From Pseudovirgaria hyperparasitica (lineage: Eukaryota), in NCBI GenBank assembly GCA_010093815.1, contig ML996577.1: DNA of 64,000 bases. One strand, given 5' to 3'. The notes beneath the pieces are model-generated. The model made no database searches, was not told the DNA's origin, and was given only the letters and a program-made list of their open reading frames with translations. The first letter of the stretch is position 1; each line of letters starts with the position of its first letter. Below, one piece after another: positions 29,383 to 46,044 of the stretch. The position numbers and the translations under genes are program-made.

Positions 29383-30477
29383 TCAAGTCGGACTGAGCGG
29401 TGCTTTACTTTTCTTTCTGCTTGGTTTGGGTTTGGCTCCAGCTGTGCGGAGTTTGTCCAGAGCCGGAATCCCCCTTTTCGCTTGTAATATCTGCGTTTCT
29501 ATCTGGCTTTTCGGTGTCTGCGTCGCCGTCATCGCTGTGCTTTCTTGCATTGCTTTAAGAGTCTCAGCCGCCTTCGCCTGAGCATCCTCTTGTTGTTTGA
29601 TGTGTGCATTCGTCGACTTGAATACAAACGAACCAGGCTCGCCGTTCAAAGGATTCTTGTCCATGTACTCGGTGCCGTAGCGAATCGATGACATCAAAGC
29701 GTCGAAGAGTGACTGCTCGACGGCCCTCTGTGACGTTGGGGCCTGTGCTCCTTGTTTCATCACGGTTGGCTGCGAGAGAGCTTCGGGCCCTGGAGAGCCG
29801 GCTCGGCTTTGCACTGCAGAAGGCGCCCCTTGCTTCCTGGTCGTGACCGGCACGTAGGAGTGGCCGGCAGCCGGGGAGAATGAAGGTAAGGACGCCGCCG
29901 TAGTCATGAATTTATTCAATGCGAGTGTTGTCGCGAGCTAGCAATCCATCAGCAAGCCGTCAAAAGCATATCGTACGATCTGATCTCACAAATCTGTTCG
30001 CCAACACGTCGTAGACTGACGGCGCTTGTATGATCTGAATTCCCACTATGAGCCACTGACCCATGACCGTCACGTCATCAGGCTCGTTATGCGTCTTGCT
30101 CCTGTGCTGTTTTTGCATGATCCAGGTATCATTACTGCTGCCATTCGCCAATTGCTGCGGTTCCGATACAATTATGAACTCCAATCCCCCGGATGGCATG
30201 TCTTTTACGGCCTGCTCGAACAGCTTGCGGTCAGCCAGCAGATAGTTCTTAGTCGGGTCGACTTTGGCTTGGGTCTCAATGGCGCTATTGTTGGACATTC
30301 GGTCGAAGAAAGGCGACTCGTGGAAATAGAAGTGTACTGAAGCTTGTTAGAAGGGCTTTACGCATGAGCAATGGTGAGCGGGCTACTATTGTTTGGGTGG
30401 AGATTAAGCCAGAATGGGTCTCCTGACATGAAGAACTGAGGAGCTTCCCATACTATCTCATCCAGTGATTGTGCCAT
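29383..30477 (-). CDS. MED6: Mediator subunit Med6, 3 exons
   Basis: LDEIVWEAP...HFYFHESPFFDRMSNN, GLEFIIV, WIMQKQ and QAPSVYDVLANR|LL...FSPAAGHSY. Confidence 0.85.
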
Positions 30478-31004
30478 TGCTCGCTAGCGACCGCGGGTAC
30501 TTGGCCGGTGTTAAGAGTTGTGGGCGGAGACTGTGTGAAACGATTGAGGAGGTCGAAGTCTACGCTGGGTCGCATTGCAGCTCTAGGCGACTGGGCCAAG
30601 TCTTGTGGGCACGTCGATCAGTGACAAATGGACTGGGACAATCAAGATTCAAGCTGCCAGAGATGAATAGTGAGGTTGGTGAAGATGCATCACGGCGAGA
30701 CTTGCCCGGGACTTGGACCGAACGACAAGGACTAATAATATCCCACAAATGTGGACCGTCCGCGGGTCCCCTCAGGCTTATCCAATTCAGGAAGTAGTGT
30801 GCAGCCTCGGTTCAACACCCATGAAGAGTACATTAGGGTACGACCATGGATGGTGTCGATAAAAGTACAAAAAGCCACTATTACTCTCTCCCCCTCGTCT
30901 GATCTCTCATCTTATTTCTACTCCGCTCAGAACGACCGTTGTCGCACCAAAATTTCAAACCTCAAGACCAGCCTATCTCACTGATAATCCACCACTCCAC
31001 CACC

Positions 31005-31448
31005 ATGCCTACATACATCGCTATGCTAGGACCTGTCATCGGTCTCAATCTCTGGACCTTCGGCATGGAAGCATGGATGTACGCCCTTCGTCTGCCTGCC
31101 ATAGGCAACTCCGGACTCAAATTCACGCCTGAGTCGACCAAAGAAGACTTGAAGAAACTTCCTCCTCGCGTCCAATGGCCTGCAGATAATTACAACCATC
31201 TCTTCGAACAGCCAACTCAATTCTACGCCGTTGCGCTTACTCTCGCTCTCCTTGGGAGAGACACTGGCGTCAGTGATCTCGATGTCAAGCTTGCGTGGAC
31301 CTATGTTGGTGTCAGAATGGTACACAGCGTTGTCCAGTCTGTGGCCAACCCGATTCCGATCCGTTTCAGTTTGTTCGCGCTCTCTGGTGCTGTTCTAGCT
31401 GGACTGACCGCGAGGACGGCTTTGACAGTTTTCGACATCGCCTTCTAA
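31005..31448 (+). CDS. MAPEG-family membrane protein
   Basis: WMYALRLP, WPADNYNHLFEQPTQFY, LAWTYVGVRMVHS and RFSLF. Confidence 0.88.
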   Translation: MPTYIAMLGPVIGLNLWTFGMEAWMYALRLPAIGNSGLKFTPESTKEDLKKLPPRVQWPADNYNHLFEQPTQFYAVALTLALLGRDTGVSDLDVKLAWTYVGVRMVHSVVQSVANPIPIRFSLFALSGAVLAGLTARTALTVFDIAF

Positions 31449-31722
31449 TTGTTCGGAGATTGGGTAAAAGTGGCTCGTAGCAGGGGTTGGGTTTCAAATA
31501 CTAATGTCTGTAGAGCTCCTGAGATGGAAAGTTTCACAAGACGCATTGAAATGCAGTTATGTGGTTCAGACGGTTACAGCGATATGTCGGACCTCATACT
31601 CATAATAGGATGTCTGAAGCCGTATGAAACCACAATTCTACCTATTGTATAATCGAACTCCTATGCCCTGTCCGTGCAGTAATCCCACGTCTCGTTGATC
31701 ACACGCTGGGTTATTCCTCCCC

Positions 31723-32616
31723 TCACCTCCCTCCGCTTCTCTCACCAACAGTCTGACTCCTATCTGAATCACTCTCACCCACCTCAACCCACTCATCACC
31801 CTCATCCGGACCCACAAACTCAAACTCTCCACCACACCTCACTCCCTCGACCCCATCATCCTGCTCTTCCTCCTCTCCCAAAACCACCGGCAGCCCGGGC
31901 GGTTCCCACGTCCAAAACACCGTGCTATCGGTTCCACGGAACGGAAATACCAAGCGCACTCCCCGATCTCGTTCTTTCTTCCTCCACACCCTCTTGTGGA
32001 TATCATCCTGTCTATCAACCCGTCCACGAATGAGCGGCTCGACGATCGTGAATTTGGCGTCGCAGTCCCCTGTATAGTCGACGACGTGTCCACAGGCTGG
32101 ACAGGCGGGAATTTGTGTCGCAGGGAGGGTGGAGAAAGGGGTTGGGAGACGGCAATGACAACATATGAAGTAATCGACAACCACGATGGACGGTGTTGAG
32201 AGAAGAGAGAAGTGGACAAAGGCAGCGAGACCGCTACGGTGGACATGGGGTGGACGGCGGGGCGGGTGGACTACAGACATATTTGTATTATCGTTTGACT
32301 CGTTCGTTCCGTTCGTGTTTTGGTCTATATGAACCAGTACGTCTCTTCTGCGAGCGTTGCGGCGAGAGATCTGTGGCATTTTTGCGGTACGGAGGATGAC
32401 TTTATTGCGTGGGAATATCTCGTGAAGAGATCCAGTGTCACAATAAGCATTGTGAGATTGTGCAAAGATTGGCAAAGACCACACGTGGCTCGGTGAAAAG
32501 CGATCACTTGGATGAGAATAAGAGAATTGCTCGATAGTGCACGCGACTAGAAAGTGTGGAATTCTAGTATACGAGGGGTCAGCTGCTGGCTCTTGACAAA
32601 GTAAAAGGTCCATCAT
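31723..32616 (-). CDS. Hypothetical protein with possible zinc-ribbon CxxC pairs (start uncertain, perhaps MPQISRR)
   Basis: CCHC...CPACGH motif and an acidic C-terminus. Confidence 0.45.
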   Translation of the reverse strand: MMDLLLCQEPAADPSYTRIPHFLVACTIEQFSYSHPSDRFSPSHVWSLPIFAQSHNAYCDTGSLHEIFPRNKVILRTAKMPQISRRNARRRDVLVHIDQNTNGTNESNDNTNMSVVHPPRRPPHVHRSGLAAFVHFSLLSTPSIVVVDYFICCHCRLPTPFSTLPATQIPACPACGHVVDYTGDCDAKFTIVEPLIRGRVDRQDDIHKRVWRKKERDRGVRLVFPFRGTDSTVFWTWEPPGLPVVLGEEEEQDDGVEGVRCGGEFEFVGPDEGDEWVEVGESDSDRSQTVGERSGGR

Positions 32617-33397
32617 TCACCCAAACAAAGGGAGTATCTATGAACTATGGCGAGTTTGTCCATCATACCTTTAGTCTTCTCGGTCGTATCTATGACTTTT
32701 TTCTCGGACGTGGCAACTCATATTTAAGGTTTTTCTGCTTCCAAGGGTCTATGCTTGTGGATGCACGAGATATGGGGGTAATAGATTTACAGAATCTAAT
32801 TAGGAGGCAGCGCGATCCCTCGGCGAGTGAATAGTAAGCATGTCTCATCCACTGACTGGACCTCACGACATCTAGTTCACATTCCACACTCGAGTGAACT
32901 ATAGGCCGAGCTGTGAAATAGCTTTGAGTATGCGCATATAGTTATTCAGGGGCAGGGACTGATGTAGCGTCTCACAAGGGGCGACGGCGGCAGCAAGAAT
33001 AATCAAACAGCGATACAGAGGTACAGTACTAGGCGGTAGAAGAGTATGTATACACTTTCTGCTAATGATATATTGCGTTTCGGCCGGAACAAGAGTCTGC
33101 AATTCGTTCCAGAATACGAACCACTAATCGCAATAATGATATACCGCATTGGGTGTCGCGAGCAGCTTGTGTAACAGCTTTGAACGAGTAGAGGTTCGGA
33201 TAACAGGACCAACATGAACCAATACTTCGGCGAGGAGTTGATTGATCGCTAATATTCTCAGAGTGTAGGTAGTGGTCAGTATCGATCCATTGTTGTGTCT
33301 GATTATGTCATCCATCACCCCACTCGATCTGTGAGTCACTGACGTTCCGGTACGGATAGCATTGTTCTTGACAAGTAAAGCACCTGCACGTAACACG

Positions 33398-35523
33398 ATG
33401 CCTGACACTATCGACTACGCAGGGAGGCCTTTCGATAGGGTGCCGTTCGAATCGGTTCTTCGTCGACGCTTTTTTTTTACCGAATCATTCGAAAGTTATC
33501 GCCAAGCTAGCGGCTTCAAGGGCGACAATCGGGGCCTCTTCGATTACGGGCCACCTGGCTGTGCTCTACAGGCAAATATAGTTGCATTATGGCGACAACA
33601 TTTTGTGCTTGAGGAGGAAATGCTAGAGCTAGACTGTACTGCCTTGACACCAGAGGATGTTTTCAAAACGAGTGGGCACGTGGACAAATTTGCCGATTGG
33701 ATGTGCAAGGATCCTGTCAAAGGAGAGTATCTAAGAGCGGACCACCTGGTTGAAAATGTTCTCGAGGGCCGCTTGAAAGGTGACAAGACTGCGAGAGGTA
33801 TTGCCATCAAACAGGAGGAAAAATCAGCAGATGCGAAGAAGGCTAAGACTGCGGTGAAGGATGTCAAGGCCGTCAAGTTGGACGATAATACTGTTAGAGA
33901 ATACGAAGAAATACTTGCGAAGGTTTGCTGCTATCATTTCTCTTACTGATCACGTATGGATAAAGTTCGCAGATCGACAACTATGACGGGGAAGCACTCG
34001 GGGAGCTGATCAAGCGTTTCGACATCCGCAATCCTGATGGGAACAATGAGGTACAACCTCCAATTCCGTTCAACTTGATGTTCAAGTCTAGTATTGGACC
34101 TTCTGCTGCAGCGCCAGTATATCTAAGACCGGAAACTGCACAAGGCCAATTCCTCAATTTCCGCAGGCTGCTAGAGTACAATAACAATAGCATGCCATTC
34201 GCATCAGCATCTATCGGAAAATCCTACCGGAATGAGATCTCGCCGCGATCCGGCTTGCTTCGAGTGCGCGAATTCCTCATGGCAGAAATCGAGCACTTCG
34301 TTGATCCTCTGAGCGGCAAAAAACATGATCGCTTCGATGAAGTCAAGCACATCGAACTTGCGCTGCTTGACAGGGATACCCAACTTGCAGGACAGACTGG
34401 TACCGTCCAGGTGCCCATTGGATCTGCAGTCGAGCGGAAGATCGTCGACAACGAAACACTTGGTTACTTTCTTGCACGGGTGCAATTGTTCCTCGTCAAA
34501 ATCGGCATCGACATCAAGAAGTTAAGGTTCCGTCAGCATCTTGCGAATGAGATGGCTCATTATGCATGCGATTGCTGGGATGCCGAACTCCTCACAAGCT
34601 ATGGATGGATTGAGTGTGTCGGATGTGCAGATCGCAGTGCATACGACTTGTCAGTACATGCAAAGCGCACTGGAGAAAAGCTTATTGTCCAGGAACAGCT
34701 CCCTAGCCCTCTAAAAGTAGAGCGTTGGGAGGGCACACTTGAGAAGAAGAAACTGGGACCAAGATTTCGCAAAGATGCAAAGTTTGTGGAGATGGCAGTT
34801 TCTGAGCTGGATCAAGAGTCGCTTGAGAAGCAAGCAGCCATACTCAAGCAAGAGGGCCGCATCACACTGACATCACCAGTACCTCTTGCCGATGGCTCAG
34901 CGACTCTCGACATCGACAGTGACATCTTGACAATAGAGAAAGTTACTAGGATTGAAAGTGTCAGGGAGTATGTCCCCAATGTAATTGAGCCATCGTTCGG
35001 TATCGGTCGCATTTTATACTCCCTCTTGGAGCAAGTATATTGGCATAGACCTCAAGACTCAGCACGCGGCGTAAGTCATACTCTCAAGCCGTGGGTGCTG
35101 GAAAGCAGATGATATATCTAAGCTAACGATGTCTTCTAGGTGCTCTCACTACCTCTACCAGTCGCGCCTACTAAGGTTCTGATTGTTCCACTTTCATCAA
35201 ACACGGCCTTCTTACCTATCGTAAAGAAGATATCACAGCGTCTCCGTGCTATCGGTGTGTCCAGCCGTGCTGACGCGTCCAGTGCGAGTATCGGGAAGCG
35301 ATATGCACGCAACGACGAGCTTGGCACTCCCCTTGGTATCACGATCGATTTTGACACTGTCAAGAACGGCTCTATCACGCTTCGTGAGAGAGACGGCACG
35401 AAGCAGATCCGAGCATCTGAAGACGAAGTCATTGATGCTGTCAAGGCTCTGGTTGATGGTACGGAGGCTCTAGAAGAAGTCTTTAGCCGACTACCAGAAT
35501 TCACTGGCCAGGAGACTGAGTGA
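33398..35523 (+). CDS. Glycyl-tRNA synthetase (alpha2 type), divergent form; 3 exons
   Basis: FDYGPPG, SGHVDKFAD, YLRPETAQGQF, YRNEISPRSGLLRVREFLMAEIEHF, VIEPSFGIGR and SIGKRYARNDELGTP; introns 33923-33972 and 35071-35139. Confidence 0.95.
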
Positions 35524-36531: not shown

Positions 36532-38140
36532 TTAACTCTGCTTTCCCCCAAACCCAATCCTGACCCCTCTCCTGCTCTCCACCGTCAACTTGATCTCCTC
36601 CTCAAACACCCCAGTCTCATCCCGAAACTCGCACCTCTCCCACTCCCTCGCCACCCTGACTAGCAAATACGCAACCTGAATCAACACCATATTCTGCGCC
36701 GGACACATGCGCACCCCTCCCAGAAACGGTACGTACTGCCACTTTGCCTCCCAGAGCGGTCTGCCCGGCCCCCACCGCTCCGGCTCCCATTCATCTGCAT
36801 CTTCGCCCCAAATGCTCTTATCGCGATGCAAGGAGTAGAGGTCCATTTCTGCAACTCTGCCCTTAGGCACAAATAAGGGGCTGCGCCCATCTGGCCCGCC
36901 GCCGACCGGTAGCACTGTATCGCGCAGCGCGGCGCGGCCTATTCGCGACGCGGGCAGGTGTAAGCGGAGGGTTTCGTTGATGATGGATTTTGTTACTGGG
37001 AGGGCTTTTATGACTTCGAAGGTGAGAGGCTGAGTGCCGAGAGCTAGGGCTTCGGCACGTAGAGAGGACCATGCCGGTGGGTGTTGGGCGAGTTCCCAGA
37101 TGCAGTTTGAGAAGGCGATGGCGGAGGTGTCGCGGGCGGGGAAAAATACGTTTATGATTTGTGCGCGGAGGGCGATAGGGTCGGTGATCTGTTGGGTCAT
37201 GCCGTCGAGGAGGATGTATTTGCCGCTGTCGTGTGGGTCGGCGGCCTTCTCTGCGCTGGGGAGCGAGGATGGGTTCAATGCTTGAGCGCGTTTGGCGAGG
37301 GCTTTGTGGACGTTCTTGTCGACGAATTCGTGGACGATGGTATAGGCGGGCTTGTAGCCGGGGTCAAGGGAGAATAGGAAGTGGAAAGGACCAGTGATTA
37401 TGCGCAGGGCGAGATTGAGGAGGGAGCGGTCGAAGGCTTTGAGGAAGCGGTCGGTTTCGAAAGGGGTCTCGGGTTGGAGAGACTCGACAGACTGGCCGAA
37501 TATGAATTCGGTCGATGTATCAAGGAACTGTTCGCAAGTAAGCTGAAGATATGGATCATTATTATTCTGGTCGTACCAAACGCTTTGCCAGATGGAGCAT
37601 ATCGAATGTCTCCCCGTCTTTGGGTATATGTTCCATGAATCGCTGCACATGATTCTCGAAGGATGGAAGATCGGCGACTTCAGCACGATTGAAAGTAGGT
37701 TTCACAAGAGCTCGTGAGTGCTTCCAGAACTCGCCATCATCAGTAAAGATTCCACGGTCTAAGAACGGCGCCCCAATGTCTCCCCTCATGGGCCCAACAC
37801 CCCAGTCACCAAAGTTCGTGGCAGCGATTGCTTGTATATTCTCCGGGTCCGCCGTCTGGACTTCCGTGACTCCACAAGTCTTCATCTGAAAAGTCCCGCC
37901 AAGTTTCCTGTGCATGTCCCGGTAGAAGTTTGACCTTTGGCCTCGAAAATCGGCCATCCGGATGCGGCAAAAGAGATCCATACCGAGCAGCGGATCGAGG
38001 TTAGGGTATTTTCTCGGCGCTCGACAGCCATGTTGATGGACAGCTCTTCGATAACGCAGTCTCTCATATATCGCGAGGATGATTGTTCTCACGATGGCTA
38101 CTCCAATGCATACGCCCGTGAGCGCGAAGAGGCTGACCAT
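36532..38140 (-). CDS. Cytochrome P450 (CYP52-clan-like), 519 aa, 2 exons
   Basis: N-terminal TM anchor, GIFTDDGEFWKHSRALVKP, ETLR (ExxR), PERW, and heme motif FLGGVRMCPAQ; intron 37576-37528. Confidence 0.95.
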
Positions 38141-38912
38141 GGTGCCGCTGTGTTTCAGATGAAGCCAGCTGTTATCGAATGGCGTTCTATACACCGGCTA
38201 TACAGGGCATTAGTTGCTCAGTCCTTGCCAGCATGAATATGTCGCGAAAGGTATCATCGACATGGTGGGTTCAGCAAGTGATGTAGCAGGCCCTTGAATA
38301 CAACATGCTTTCTCCCTCACCAGGAAACAGTTGCACTAACCTGCCTCTATCAAGCTTCTCTAACCAGTCTTACATTTCTTACAAATGAATCAGAAGTATG
38401 AGCTCATGGCGTCGTGATACAGCGCGATGCATGCAGATCTAGTCAGCAACGGTCCAACCCCGATTGGCTAGACTTAGCGCGAGCGATGCAACATGTTGGT
38501 CTGAACAGTCCACGATATTGACGACAGTGACGTCAAGGGTGTTGGCAATTCCGTGGCTTAAAGGATCGAAAGGGTATAGAGAATGAGCGCCAGTTTGGGG
38601 GTGTCTGAGTCGTGCAGCGCATGCATCCTAGACAAAGATCTCCACCTGCGCAGGGTGGAATTTTTAGCGTGGGACGCTAGTGGCGTAAGGCCTGCCCTGA
38701 TTGGTAGTTGATGACCATTTGTCTTAGCGATTCTTGTTGCAACACATGCCGAGAGTACGAAAGTCATGTTGAAAATGGATTCTCTGCTACTTGCATTGAA
38801 TTCTTATCTCTACAAACAACATTCCTCTAAAGTGAAATCTTAACGTTAACGTCTACACAAACACTACATACAAACAAACCTTCAGCCTTGACATAAATAT
38901 TCACTGGCCAAC

Positions 38913-39119
38913 ATGCAGCAACCAAACATTCTAGTTCTGCTCGTCGCCATTATGATCGGTACATCACTTGCGGCTCCAGTACCTGATGGTATGTATATTG
39001 AATCTGTGGAAGGATATAGCTAACAGGTAGTAGTTGTGATTGACGACATACACTCTCAAGAAGATGACACACCACCAGGCCCAGCACCTGACGACTACTT
39101 GGGAGGATTCTTTAAATGA
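38913..39119 (+). CDS. 53-aa secreted peptide, candidate RiPP precursor: MQQPNILVLLVAIMIGTSLA-APVPDVVIDDIHSQEDDTPPGPAPDDYLGGFFK
   Basis: ATG at 38913 with a hydrophobic signal ending SLA|AP. Intron 38989-39033 has GTATGT, GCTAAC and TAG, and splicing keeps the frame to TGA at 39117-39119. Absent from the ORF track because it is split and short. Confidence 0.75.
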
Positions 39120-39377
39120 ATTAAGTTATGGATGTGTACGATAGGGCTCGAAGCTTGCTTTGCTTACGAGAATGGTGATCTGTACTTTTAAATGATTTGA
39201 TGATAGCTCCGAAGGCTCTGAAATAGAGTACATATTTTTGCTAATAACATTTCGTGATCTTCCGCTCACAACCTAACTCAGACAAGGAGGAAAATACATG
39301 CACTTTCACTATCGATTCATTGAACATTCATAGTCTATGTGTACAGGTACATACTCGTACTAGCCATCGAACAACAA

Positions 39378-40267
39378 TCACTCCTCCCCGGGCCTACTCG
39401 CCCCATTGCCCGTGATCCAGGGCGGCGTCGGGCTCCCGGTGGCCCTGAAAACATACCCTTCTGGACAGAACTTGTACTTCTCAATCTCCGGAAAGCCCTT
39501 CGTCTCTCTTCCGATGTCTCTGTAACATGCTGTATGGCTCCTTGCCCAGTCCTCAAGCTTGTCCCAGTTCCTGCACATGCGCGTTTGCATCACGCCTGCA
39601 ACATTCTTTTTGGAGAATCCTGAGTAGCGTGGCGTATCATCGGCGTTGCACAGTGTGTCCTGGCGGAGGGACTCTAGGCAATGGAGATTGTGCGCGAGAC
39701 CTTCTTCGGGGTCGATGTCGATCTGCTCGTTGTTGACGGCACGGAGCAGCGAGCGGCGGATGTATTGCTGTTGGAGTCGTTGAGTCACACGTGTTGATTT
39801 TATGGAATGACGATGTGACATACCAAACAGTGTAGATTATGGTATCCGTTTAGTAAATAGATCCCTTTGTTCCCATCCCATGGCCAATGCTGCGCTTGCG
39901 GAAGCATGCGTCCTTTAACCCAGTCGTGAGGCAGCGCAACAATCCCTGGATCCACAACCCATGATTCCCATGCAGCATCTGCAATTGAACGATTTGGATG
40001 CGCAAAGATTGTGTCGTCACGATATGGTGTTGGGACGTCTCTCTCGAGCTTTGCGTATAGGCTCCGGTCTTTGTTTGTCACCTCCCTATCTGTGGCTTGG
40101 AAAGCGCTGTATGCCCACAGCGCATTTCCAACGGCTGAGAACACTGTGATGAGAAGTAAAGCTCGAAAGGTCCAGCTGTCGTTGTGAGTTTCATAGCGGC
40201 TGTGTGTTCCTTGTGCCGTCTCATCATCGGAGTGTAATGGTGTGTATCCTTTGCTATGCGACATCAT
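39378..40267 (-). CDS. UstYa-family (DUF3328) oxidase, 277 aa, 2 exons
   Basis: N-terminal TM helix, ADAAWES, two HxxHC motifs (YHNLHCL and AHNLHCLESLRQDTLCNADDTP) and RMCRNWDKLEDWA; intron 39823-39768. Confidence 0.93.
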
Positions 40268-41024
40268 GTTTTGCGATGGGCGTGCCCAGTAATGGTCTTC
40301 TTCTGTATGATGATATGAACTGTTCAATATACCGTCAGGTATGGAAGCAGTATGCACTATGATTCAGATACGTGGGCGCCACACTTTCCGGCAGTTTTTA
40401 GAGACCCGAGTGACGTTCTGCATAACACGTAGGACATGCTGATCGCCCGTCAAGCCCCATGAGCTAACTTCTAGCCGGATCGAAGATAAGACAAGTGTAT
40501 TTTTGGAAACCGAGTACAAGATTTGCAGTATAGGGATTAGCCAACAGCTGTCGGGGAAATGGGCTGCCCGTTAGAGCGACTGGCGTTCACTGCCAAGCAC
40601 CTCGGGCCGCTCAACAGCGCCAACGAAGTCGTCCAGCACCGTCACGCTGCCTGCGCCACCAACATCATCCCCTCTCCAGAAAACATACCTCCATTTCTGG
40701 ACGGATCGATCCAACGTGCTTCATTGTTATACATCGCTCACTATTGATGTATAACACAAACAAACTGACTGATGATTAGGCCAAGCCACTGACGTTTGAT
40801 CTGCGAACAGGGAACCGCATCGGGGACTTGGAAAGCCTTGTTCTAGTCTCGCCGAAAGGTGGATTCTGCAATGGCACATCACCAAACAGTTGGTCTGAGT
40901 CCCGAAACAAATATGGTCACTAGCTTCCTTTTCCCATGTTCGATATAGAGAGGCTCCCGACCACGTTGTATCCATCCTGGCAACGGCACCTCCCGCACGC
41001 GATCTCCACGAACCGCAAGTCAAG

Positions 41025-42271
41025 ATGTCTACAACCTCCCGCGAGGGCATGATCGCATGCTGTACAGTTTTACCTGTGCTTGGTATCACAGTCGTTGGGC
41101 TCCGAGCCTATGTCCGAGTGTACAAGCAGAAAGTTGATTTGGCATTCGACGACTATGTTCAGCCAGTCATTTTGGTACGTTACAAGTACTACTAGACCTG
41201 GATGAAAGCACTGACTGTGATTAGGCTTTATACATTGGCATGTGTATTGCAGGACTGATAGGTACGTTGGTCGAGACTATGCCCGTGGAATACCTCTGAT
41301 CTTCTCATAGGAGTCTCAAACAAAGCCTTGGGCTATCCAAGTCCCGTCGGACCAATCGAGTATACTGCGCCCTCTACAATCCTCTGCATGAAGGTACGTC
41401 AGGCAGCCCTAGACAAAGATCACAGCAATTGACTATTGGATTGCAGCTGCTCTATGCCATTCAAATGATTCAGATTCCAGCTTTAGGTCTTGTAAAAATT
41501 GCCGCCCTCTGTTTTTACAGACGCATGTTCTGTGTGCACCGGAAAGGCTCCTTGGTCGTAATCATTTGGACACTGATATATGCCACAATACTCTGGATGA
41601 TCGGATGTGTCATATCATACGCTCTGGGCTGTGGCACGCACCCGACCGCTGCTTGGGGTGGTAACATCCCCTTTGCAACGTACTGCAAGGACATTACCTT
41701 GCGCTGGGAAGTAGGTTTCTCAGTGACGGACTTTGTGCTGGACACATTGGTCTTGGTTGTGCCTTTGCCATCTGTGAGTCCCTGTCCACTCGTTGTGACC
41801 CTTCGAAGGCGGATGACTGATAATATGCAGATATGGTCTCTCAGAACGACATTCGGTCGCAAACTCGGAATAACCTGCGTGCTCATGCTCGCCCTTGTCG
41901 GCTACGGCGCCTCCATTGCACGCATGGCGGTTTTCATCCGGCTCGCAACTGGTGTGATGGGTGCCAGCGCAATCGATATCCAGTCGTCTGACACTCAAGC
42001 CATATGGTTCTCCCAGCTCGAAACCGGGCTTGCGCTTATTGCAGTAAATCTCCCTACGTTGTGGAAACTGGTGTCGGACTTCACATCTTCGAGCATGTAT
42101 CACAGTCTCAGGAGTCTGATCCGAAGCTCGGATGAGAGTAAGGGGAGTGTAGTCGATGTCAAGTTCGGGAGGCCGGAGGGACGAGAGTCGGAGAAGAGCT
42201 TTGATACGTCAAGTAGTGCAAGTCACGAGAGAGGCGGGATCAGGAAAACAGTGGAATATGATGTTGTGTAG
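41025..42271 (+). CDS. Pth11-like (fungal rhodopsin-domain) integral membrane protein without CFEM; 5 exons
   Basis: VVGLRAYVR..LAFDDY, LVKIAALCFYRRMF, TDFVLDTLVLVVPLP|IWSL, ASIARM and LETGLALIAVNLP. Confidence 0.88.
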
Positions 42272-43425: not shown

Positions 43426-43525
43426 AAAAAAATCTGTAATCTCTTTGATTAAGTCCGTCATCCTTAGTGCAGGGGCCGAGCTAATCTTCTCTGTATCGTT
43501 TCATATTGACTAAGTGCCCGAAGGC
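43426..43525 (-). ncRNA. U6: U6 spliceosomal snRNA (variant sequence)
   Basis: Minus strand reads GCCUUCGGGC...GAUACAGAGAAGAUUAGCUCGGCCCCUGCACUAAGGAUGACGGACUUAAUCAAAGAGAUUACAGAUUUUUUU. It has the 5' stem-loop, ACAGAGA box, AGC triad, ISL and T7 terminator, plus a TATA-like TAATATATT 23-31 nt upstream. Confidence 0.92.
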
Positions 43526-46044
43526 GAAGTACATCCAATTTTAATAGAATATATTATGCAGATTAAAGAACTGCGGATAGTGGGACACTGTTTGGTACTA
43601 GCCGGGCACCCGTAAAGGTAGGTGCTGGAGGTGAATGTGGCCTGATTTGGGAGCCTGTGCGCGCTATTGGCTGCAGATCTATGACTACACTGACACTGTT
43701 ATGAGCTAACTTGAATTAAAAATGAGTTGCCTTGACAGTTTTCCATCGCTAGATGACGGGGCATTGCTTTGCAGTGATCTGGGTTTACGCCACCACTGAA
43801 GCGTTGGCTAAGAAGGAGAGACACACATACAATCTCGGCTGTGTCCACGCGATTGTAGCGATCACAGATTAGCTGAAAGAGCGTAGTCATGAACCCAGGG
43901 ATTGGAAGAAGAAATCAATCACAGTATCTGGAAATGGAAGTCTACCGAAATGTACATTGTTTCTATATCTTGCAAAGGCTATACCTTGTTGACTCACTGT
44001 ACAGAAGTTATTCTACACGTACGTACTATAGGCTTTCTTGATCTGCTATCTTTTCTGCATTTCTAGCTAATTACAATTATCCTGTCGACTGCTATGGATG
44101 ATGGAGGTCATGCCCATCGCGCAGATATAGTCCTCACATATGTCAAAACCTGGAAGAAGTTGATCGTGCTGCGAGAGCTCTGATCAAGATCGCTTTCTTA
44201 CTTGATGTCTATGCTTCTGGCTACGATCTCTCCATTCTGGCTATGAGTTCTCTGATGTTGTGTATCGGAGCATGTACGTGATCGCCAAGGAAGAAAATTG
44301 CTTGCTCTGTAATCTGTATGTTGTAGTGGACCTCTTGGGACTACAGAATGAGAGTTCAAGGAAATGAGGAGCCTACTCAATCTTTAGCTAGTTCAAAGTA
44401 TACGTTCTTGAGAAGTCCAGGTTTCATGGGTACTGACCTCCCTAGCACTATGCGCTTGCTTGTGACATCTCGCTGCTTTTCGAAAGGAAGGTATGCTGCG
44501 AGCATGTTCAACATCTCTCTCACTCGCTCGCCCATGTTGTTTGTTCGTGGGCTTCCTGTGTTCCCCTGTACAGTCGGTCAAGGGGGAGTTTAGAGGTTAG
44601 ATACACATAATTAACTTTGTATGCAGCGTAAATATAAAGAGTGGACTTATCGAAGGCCCTCAATCGTAACCGAATCGTTCATTCTATTCTTACTAGCGTG
44701 GGTTTCAGTGACCTGCTGATTGTGCAATCTGCTTGTGGTCCAAGCGTTAGACCTTGTAATCCCCCAGTCCTTCCTCGCTTCACATTTTGCCCACAAACTG
44801 ATGCACCTACAATCCCACACTCATTTTGGCTTGTCACAATTCCTTCAATCGAAGTTTGTGCTCATCACACCAAATCTTCCTTCCTTCCATGGTTACTAGC
44901 ATCAATTGTGAGTACCACTCAGGGCACGATTCAGAACTTGAACTTCACATTTTTGTTTCAACTTTGACGCTCATATCTGATTCTTTACCACCATGTCACG
45001 AGTAACACTGTTCGGTGTAGATTTCAAGCAAGGCAGCCAAGTCATTACTTCAATGAACTGATCTCAACCGCAATGACAAGGTCAAGACATGTCAAATACT
45101 TGGTACGTATACTCAACGCCACGAATGTCTACAGATTTGACCGTCAGAACCTCAGCTGACACATACTTTGCACTAGATATAGAGGAACTCAACTCTCAGC
45201 CTAAGTCTCAGAATTGGCAAGAGTTCTAGTCTGTTCTTTCAATGAACAGTTCATCCGACAGTCTGGTAGCTAGTCTGCTTGAACGCAGGATCTCAAATAC
45301 AGATTTCTATACCGAGCAGGTAAAGAAAGTGTCAGGACATGTCGAAGAATGTGAGTCCGATATGTACGTCGATGGATTCCGGCCTTTCAAGGTCAGAGTC
45401 TTCTTCAGTCATCATGACGAGCTTCGCTAAATTTGACAGACCACGGCTTGAGCTGAAAGTGCGTTCAAGGATTCTCGAAGCTCCGCAGCTGCACGGAGAT
45501 GGTCTATTCGAGTACCTGAACGGTTCACTTCCGTGACACTTTCGAAAACTGTATTGTGAGGTAGAAAGTTTGACAGATACAGTATGAGTACTTCATCCCG
45601 AAGTAATTACGAAAGCTAAGTTGTCATAGTCAGGTGTACGATGACCAATGCCCAGCAAAGACATCCCAAGGATACTACAAGATCTACAGGCCTGGAGTAC
45701 CTCCCCAAGCGGCCGTCTGCTCACACCCTGTGAGATGTCACAGCCAAATCTGAGTACATCAGGGAACAATACACCCTCAAAATCAGAGTTCCACTTCATG
45801 CACAGAAAGATTTTTGCACGTCGACAAGTATGGTGCAGTGGAAACACACAGTTACGCAGGAATCGAAATATACTGTGAATCTTCTTTCCAATCATAACGG
45901 ACTAAGAAGAACTGGCGTGTGATTGACCACGTGTCATCATCATCTGGCAACCACGTCTTCCTTCAATGCTGAGCCAGCTTTAGACAGGTCCACCTAGCTA
46001 TACCTAGGCTTTCATTCCCTTTGTCTCTCAACTCTTCTTTCATG

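Follow-up and report, generated by a model that had tools for sequence, protein, structure and literature searches.

A four-gene locus with a small secreted precursor

This analysis concerns a stretch of 64,000 nucleotides (the window) from contig ML996577.1 of the fungus Pseudovirgaria hyperparasitica (assembly GCA_010093815.1), and within it a compact locus at positions 36532-42271 that very probably encodes a cassette for a peptide made on ribosomes and modified after translation (RiPP). The locus holds four genes, coding for a cytochrome P450, a 53-amino-acid (aa) secreted precursor peptide, a UstYa/DUF3328 oxidase and a Pth11-like protein with seven transmembrane (7TM) segments. All four gene models close without internal stops, and a Pfam scan confirmed the p450, UstYa and Fung_rhodopsin domains. 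The layout consists of two head-to-head pairs, P450/peptide and UstYa/Pth11-like. A preliminary description of this DNA had placed the P450 divergently from the peptide gene, the peptide gene converging on a UstYa gene with two HxxHC motifs, and the UstYa gene divergently from a Pth11-like membrane protein; the gene models agree with it on each point.

The P450 gene lies on the minus strand (38140-37577 and 37527-36532) and codes for 519 aa, with PF00067 matches on both exons and the heme motif FLGGVRMCPAQ. Its first exon (37577-38140) encodes an N-terminal membrane anchor at residues 1-17, and the second (36532-37527) carries the I-helix motif FFPARDTS at about 37146-37123, the ExxR motif, the heme Cys codon (36705-36703) and the stop. 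A 143-nt intron in its 5′ untranslated region (UTR) spans 38198-38340. The peptide gene, on the plus strand, is made of two exons. The first (38913-38988) encodes a signal peptide predicted by hydropathy only (hydrophobic region at residues 6-14, hydropathy 3.6, putative cleavage at SLA|AP within SLA|APVPD), while the second (39034-39119) encodes an acidic spacer, AP-D-D, the core YLGGFF (39096-39113), a Lys and the stop, giving the C-terminus DDYLGGFFK. The UstYa gene (minus strand, 40267-39824 and 39767-39378) codes for 277 aa with PF11807 on both exons, six Cys and two HNLHC motifs at residues 143 and 174. Its exon 1 (39824-40267) contributes a single N-terminal transmembrane helix (residues 34-50) and the first HNLHC (39841-39827), and exon 2 (39378-39767) the second (39692-39678). 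The Pth11-like gene (plus strand, 41025-42271) has five exons (41025-41174, 41225-41261, 41311-41393, 41447-41773 and 41831-42271) and codes for 345 aa, with PF20684 found on the two exons scanned. Its product shows seven hydrophobic windows by the Kyte-Doolittle scale, the last two adjoining, and so combines PF20684 with seven transmembrane helices, as class XIV receptors do.

Transcript evidence comes from assembled contigs of two runs, X1 and X2, which belong to one sample of one study whose record gives no library type and whose contig depth is unsuited to ranking genes by expression. These contigs are taken as transcripts because spliced contigs can come from transcripts alone. They skip exactly all seven predicted coding introns, which have GT..AG ends, as well as the P450 5′ UTR intron, whose joint is present in both runs. 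The P450 coding intron 37528-37576 is skipped in both X1 and X2, and a 34-nt version of it is ruled out. Likewise, the contigs fix a 45-nt intron in the peptide gene and hence the 53-aa product, excluding 54-aa and unspliced 36-aa models, and one contig has a poly(A) end behind 39268. The preliminary description would have been abandoned had the peptide gene proved silent; it is transcribed and spliced. Shared promoters may lie at 38600-38810 for P450 and peptide and at 40564-40662 for UstYa and 7TM, where assembled transcript ends stand about 200 and 100 nt apart, respectively, although contigs do not mark true starts.

A Kex2-repeat family in which the window copy has one core

A search with precursor exon 2 against 1.84 billion representatives returned five matches: P0154, three multicore proteins and an unrelated repeat protein (P0155, 2076 aa), which lacks the core and was rejected. 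A profile search (five matches among 3040 candidates) contributed a fourth relative. P0154, which the database names Pseudovirgaria hyperparasitica EJ05DRAFT_513050, matches the spliced peptide exactly; the species is described as a mycoparasite of rust sori (PMC3317363). Neither a paralogue in the same genome nor a Pfam family matching the peptide was found. In the ESM Atlas, the 31-aa exon frame had no usable match, and all matches of the relative P0156 scored below 0.9, including an MF-alpha cluster at 0.81 that is a lead at most.

The hexapeptide YLGGFF is present in 12/12 cores across the five precursors, of which the window copy has one core, P0159 two, and P0156, P0157 and P0158 three each. 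The core is followed by KR or RR in nine cases, by KE in one, by the end of the record in one, and by K and a stop in the window. AP stands at -4/-3 in 10 of the 12, and the two residues between it and the core vary. All four relatives carry repeated cores between Kex2 sites; the window precursor, with one core and no KR, corresponds to their first repeat unit, the stop replacing their Arg. No further repeat remnants were found in the 3′ UTR behind the stop (474/500 shuffles scored as high). By this comparison the 53-aa peptide reads as one of a family of Kex2-repeat precursors, itself with a single core. Its terminal Lys would be half of a Kex2 site, a remnant of the relatives' KR, because KR or RR follows nine of the 12 cores. 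Of the core first proposed, YLGGFF(K), the hexapeptide is therefore borne out and the Lys falls outside it.

A distinct P450 lineage

The P450 carries FFPARDT in its I-helix, and the pattern P-[AG]-R-D-[TS] recurs in 64/78 rows of a quick tree whose rows were picked by likeness to the query. Four paralogues from the same genome (the nearest 38% identical) read LLAGRDT, the canonical I-helix of the CYP52 clan, which the window P450 lacks, and fall outside its clade in that tree (SH-aLRT 93). The window P450 has a terminal branch of 0.66 against a median of 0.21. Automatic database names among its matches are CYP52A12, CYP52E2 and alkane hydroxylase. A search of solved structures found distant CYP3A and CYP102 P450s as best matches, and the AlphaFold model of exon 2 has a pLDDT of 74. 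Judged by motif and tree position, the FFPARD P450 is a separate lineage with an altered I-helix, set in the CYP52 neighbourhood by automatic names.

Co-inheritance in distant fungi

The P450, precursor, UstYa and 7TM genes are co-inherited in distant fungi. In Cudoniella acicularis, the P450 (G7Y89_g3059) and the precursor (g3061) are two locus tags apart, as they are in Botrytis sinoallii (EAF02_002305 and 002303), and in Dirinaria the UstYa gene Q9191_007724 adjoins the P450 gene 007725. Precursor P0157 and UstYa P0033 both come with a contig of 5078 bp. More broadly, 11/33 UstYa matches have a longest contig of exactly the same length in bp as a P450 match (120 listed out of 157), an indirect sign of linkage that is consistent with the Dirinaria tags; 1000 offset controls averaged 0.11 and never exceeded 2. 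In other fungi, these P450/UstYa genes likewise neighbour the peptide's relatives. Such conservation beside DUF3328 homologues was what the preliminary description had called for, and together with the spliced transcript it supports the minimal RiPP pathway suggested there.

A set of 17 metagenome loci, seven of them shorter than 4 kb, was collected with a P450 profile. The first small-gene scan missed the Kex2-processed repeat precursors (KEPs) of two of these, L036 and L040, which a repeat search later caught, and blanks of that scan are weak. L040 carries a 7TM gene, P450, UstYa and a three-core KEP ([AV]PEPG[RS]FA-KK/KM); L036 carries the start of a UstYa gene, a 7TM gene, a five-core KEP (APVPGSML-KR) and P450; and L035 has P450 with the same KEP as L036. 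When all cores are aligned at the dibasic site, positions -4 (Gly) and -2 (hydrophobic) are all that they have in common, and Tyr is not shared. Introns sit just past the signal peptide in the precursor genes of three cassettes (window 38989-39033, L036 at about 8485, L040 at about 13250). The loci L029-L031 represent a related cassette in decay, with P450 intact and UstYa broken after a DPGIVALPHD motif in three assemblies. In L030 the 7TM gene lies 6.7 kb away, and a by-eye reading places a glycoside-hydrolase-like gene between it and UstYa. The P450 of L032 is split over two frames.

The Pth11-like gene as a cassette member

Merging of matches leaves 12 UstYa loci in the genome (from 27) and, as a lower bound, about 72 PF20684 genes (from 106). 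A PF20684 gene lies within 3.1 kb of 5/12 UstYa loci (binomial p 6e-6, or 1e-4 without the window locus), a test that presumes an even spread of genes and so overstates significance. UstYa was found in 0/38 of the other 9-kb 7TM neighbourhoods. In a tree of 76 7TM rows (72 genomic, four from metagenomes), extracted with a profile seeded on the window protein, eight copies beside UstYa or an FFPARD P450 form one branch with support 98/83; shuffled labels needed 7.7 changes, with 0/500 as low. The five 7TMs beside an FFPARD P450 group at 100/86. When rows were drawn with a cassette-free profile, from which L030 and L042 were excluded as too short, the window, L036 and L040 grouped at 91. In the UstYa tree, the window, L030, L040 and another locus of this genome, L059, form one branch (100/98), in which the window protein has a short branch (0.21). 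Because the cassette 7TMs form one branch and 5/12 UstYa loci adjoin one, the tree and neighbourhoods mark the Pth11-like gene as a cassette member and no bystander; it is the most unusual part of the cassette.

Other loci of this genome show further arrangements. L059 (G000:C13:21000-30900) is a second cassette, arranged around UstYa as in the window: UstYa and a 7TM gene from the same branch are divergently transcribed, and a putative signal-peptide gene of about 52 aa with two Cys converges on UstYa; its P450 stands apart from the window P450's close relatives. L052 (C11:402-406 kb) and L053 (C20:731-735 kb) each have one UstYa, a PF20684 gene and a putative short, non-repetitive signal-peptide open reading frame (ORF), possibly a single-core precursor of the kind that repeat-based surveys overlook. 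Multicore KEPs occur at L054 (C29:12-22 kb; ..AVNYILVLQK.. repeats with three UstYa), L055 (C19:543-553 kb; LVDDDVVYPDY-KR with two UstYa) and L061 (C11:507-517 kb; GSPVPPLFDGGVD-KR with one UstYa). On contigs C19 and C29, which hold Tyr-bearing multicore loci with several UstYa, PF20684 had no match. L129 (G000:C24:203776), a PF20684 gene, is placed as sister to the cassette branch (support 82/83) and has the same CGxH loop motif, and neither UstYa nor a small secreted ORF was found within 4 kb of it.

A proposed pathway and its alternatives

A pathway for the window can be drawn from the known biology of KEPs and dikaritins. The signal peptide would carry the precursor into the endoplasmic reticulum. 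In the relatives, Kex2 would cut after KR, a job that the stop would do in the window precursor. Kex1-type carboxypeptidases remove a C-terminal Lys after Kex2 cleavage, and such an enzyme would trim the last Lys to leave the same C-terminus as in the relatives, while a protease encoded outside the cassette would remove the acidic AP-x-x leader. In the secretory pathway, the single UstYa would then oxidise the core at a C-H bond, DUF3328 proteins being described as dicopper oxidases of C(sp3)-H bonds that are anchored in the membrane and act in the lumen (PMC12435403). The most likely single modification, offered tentatively and by analogy, would be an ether from Tyr-O to Phe C-beta (-2 Da), such as AprY makes when it alone cyclises asperipin-2a via Tyr-O to C-beta ethers (PMC6514808); victorin is described as closing its ring through a C-terminal Phe (PMC9233826). 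Tyr cross-linking of YLGGFF stands as an analogy because distant four-gene cassettes carry Tyr-free cores. For the same reason, the comparison of cores suggests that the family-wide chemistry is located at the C-terminal tetrapeptide, and UstYa could instead catalyse beta-hydroxylation or desaturation near the common C-terminal G-x-hydrophobic-x motif. The FFPARD-type P450, which would add a second oxidation, is likely to act on the peptide or its product. As for the 7TM protein, its co-inheritance suggests that it would handle the product, most likely as a receptor, or else as a carrier or in self-protection; among these roles the receptor leads, as a possibility held slightly less firmly than the ether. 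The exact bond apart, it appears fairly probable that the four-gene cassette makes a small oxidised peptide from YLGGFF and that the 7TM protein handles it. Less probable, though a fair possibility, is the widest form of the proposal, in which a peptide signal would be encoded with its own receptor, as a widespread class uniting a Kex2-type precursor, one DUF3328 oxidase, often an FFPARD P450, and a cognate Pth11-like G-protein-coupled receptor (GPCR), each receptor reading the modified peptide of its neighbouring precursor gene.

Several points weigh against this pathway, besides the limits already attached to the binomial test, the quick P450 tree and the contigs of equal length. Microsomal P450s face the cytosol, the precursor would be lumenal, and the cassette holds no transporter. 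Expression evidence comes from one sample. The reading stands on genes, spliced transcripts and linkage, and product and chemistry are supplied by analogy; Tyr is missing from the cores of the distant cassettes L035/L036 and L040. At the Cudoniella and Botrytis precursors, linkage is known for P450 alone, from locus tags and not from DNA. Among the 17 metagenome loci, UstYa was found in five, a 7TM gene in four, a KEP in three and YLGGFF in none; L032, L038 and L041 (5.7-21 kb) showed no UstYa, 7TM gene or KEP, L042 consists of P450 and a 7TM gene only, and in L029-L031, which are one lineage, UstYa is broken by a stop and a frameshift and no precursor was found. A ninth 7TM, that of L061, sits elsewhere and was taken out of the group once the first tree was known. 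In the quick tree of the cassette-free control, 5/6 kept rows stayed together (SH-aLRT 80) and L053 left, and the UstYa proteins of L052 and L053 lie outside the window's UstYa branch. A modelled complex of precursor residues 24-53 with part of the 7TM protein (TM3-7 and 19 intron-coded residues; no alignments used) scored 0.00 and speaks for neither side.

The separation of lumenal precursor and cytosolic P450 calls for a carrier. In one alternative reading the cassette makes a RiPP that serves as a toxin or in defence, and the 7TM protein acts in transport or self-protection and not as a receptor: it would move the core between lumen and cytosol for the P450, in place of the major facilitator superfamily transporters that asperipin-2a and ustiloxin have. 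Most known dikaritins are toxins (PMC9233826), the species name on the identical database entry is that of a mycoparasite of rusts, and the 76 flanking ORFs scanned (of 125) contain no transporter, unlike the asperipin-2a cluster with its aprT (PMC6514808). However, PF20684 proteins count as class XIV GPCRs, with no transport activity mentioned in the available part of PMC13308352, and the same 7TM branch also stands beside UstYa loci that lack an FFPARD P450 (L052, L053). Moreover, the core is unchanged in lichen-associated, Leotiomycete and mycoparasitic lineages, which would fit one conserved binding partner better than a toxin aimed at a host, and we regard the toxin as rather unlikely. 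It is more doubtful still that the peptide is a linear signal and that UstYa and P450 act on some other small molecule. DUF3328 proteins do serve non-ribosomal peptide synthetase (NRPS) and polyketide synthase (PKS) pathways and are not exclusive to RiPPs (PMC12048977, PMC12435403), the P450 names point to descent from fatty-acid or alkane hydroxylases, and cores diverge widely while the enzymes stay similar. Yet no PKS, NRPS or other scaffold gene was seen in the scanned flanks or, by eye, in the long ORFs of L030, L036 and L040, and DUF3328 genes are reported to be most frequent immediately beside KEP genes and to be essential for cyclising the ustiloxin, asperipin-2a and phomopsin cores (PMC7329392).

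Finally, the locus might be a decaying relic, its precursor cut to one core and its P450 drifting. The stop at the Arg position of the relatives' KR, the single core against their two or three, the long P450 branch and the related L029-L031 cassette, which lost its precursor, would all suit such decay. The four open and spliced frames, the retained HNLHC pair, six Cys, ExxR and heme Cys, the core identical to that of the relatives, the short UstYa branch and the lack of repeat remnants after the stop speak against it and make it very improbable.

Genomic surroundings

The cassette is flanked by a glycyl-tRNA synthetase gene on one side and a U6 snRNA gene on the other. The left neighbours (29963-35523) are housekeeping: Med6, a MAPEG-family gene and the glycyl-tRNA-synthetase-type gene. 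The U6 gene (43426-43525, minus strand; Rfam RF00026, 72.8 bits) lies 1.2 kb to the right. A scan of 76/125 listed flanking ORFs of at least 78 aa matched Med6 and the glycyl-tRNA synthetase anticodon domain only, with no tyrosinase, methyltransferase, peptidase, transporter or regulator; over 42300-64000 (about 21 kb), the scanned ORFs had no Pfam match. A low-depth X1 contig that skips a 65-nt CT..AC intron (44372-44436) marks an unannotated minus-strand transcript.

Literature standing and significance

Nothing on the YLGGFF core, the FFPARD P450 lineage or the link between 7TM genes and UstYa was found in the searchable literature, which omits most subscription journals and where figure logos or accession-only tables could hide the core. 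A text search for YLGGFF returned a single, unrelated paper on a human protein, and the motif is absent from the supplements searched for PMC7329392 (three files), PMC6339444 (four) and PMC12048977 (four). Table S2 of PMC7329392 gives accessions without sequences, where the YLGGFF type may stand unnamed, and a PTH11-type gene is listed without comment in one large putative cluster (PMC7099791). The cassette is probably novel, and its earlier designation as probably undescribed holds within the searchable literature.

At the least, the locus adds to the fungal RiPP clusters a minimal family that spans several classes of fungi, in which the core is defined and the P450 lineage uncharacterised; its single- and two-core precursors slip through repeat-based surveys. 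Among the GPCRs of filamentous ascomycetes, Pth11-like receptors form the largest group. If the 7TM protein is a receptor, class XIV would gain its first defined ligands, and some of the DUF3328-linked KEPs without known product would acquire a function in signalling. The cassettes point to candidate ligand-receptor pairs, testable with four small genes, in which differing cores would serve as mutual specificity controls.

Comparison with known systems

By sequence features, the cassette belongs with the dikaritin-type RiPPs of the broad KEP/DUF3328 definition and outside the narrow one. Of the broad definition it has a two-HxxHC UstYa adjoining the precursor and a signal peptide (by hydropathy); repeated cores between Kex2 sites are the one testable feature missing from the window copy. 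Of the narrow definition (PMC12048977), it has Tyr in the core, and the four genes and 76/125 flanking ORFs include no tyrosinase, methyltransferase, further DUF3328 genes, transporter or peptidase. With one core in the window and two in P0159, these precursors fall short of the KEP threshold of at least three tandem repeats of at least 8 aa between Kex2 sites. The KEPs with DUF3328 neighbours surveyed by Umemura in 2020 resemble P0156-P0158 in build and in the adjacent UstYa gene; that survey required at least three repeats, so one- and two-core members would escape it, and its main text has no occurrence of 'P450' and its section 7 names no 7TM neighbour (PMC7329392).

Ustiloxin and phomopsin are described with a signal peptide, Kex2-type repeats (as in the window's relatives), a core with N-terminal Tyr, and DUF3328 proteins, ustiloxin also with a P450; in contrast, the window has no detected tyrosinase, methyltransferase, flavin-dependent monooxygenase, peptidase, regulator or second DUF3328, and its core is unrelated. 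The victorin locus of Cochliobolus victoriae carries P450s. By description, victorin also derives from a Kex2-type multicore precursor and closes its ring through C-terminal Phe and not Tyr (PMC9233826), yet it is a chlorinated toxin from a large, dispersed locus. The Pth11-like protein matches class XIV in its domain and seven hydrophobic segments; it differs in lacking CFEM and in belonging to a branch tied to peptide/UstYa loci, and the available part of a 2026 review gives class XIV no known ligand (PMC13308352). Closest in size is the asperipin-2a cluster of Aspergillus flavus (aprA, aprY, aprT, aprR), which likewise has four genes, one DUF3328, a Tyr-containing hexapeptide core and no tyrosinase (PMC6514808, PMC12048977). 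There, a reductase and a transporter occupy the places that the P450 and the Pth11-like protein take in the window, whose single-core precursor bears one, N-terminal Tyr.

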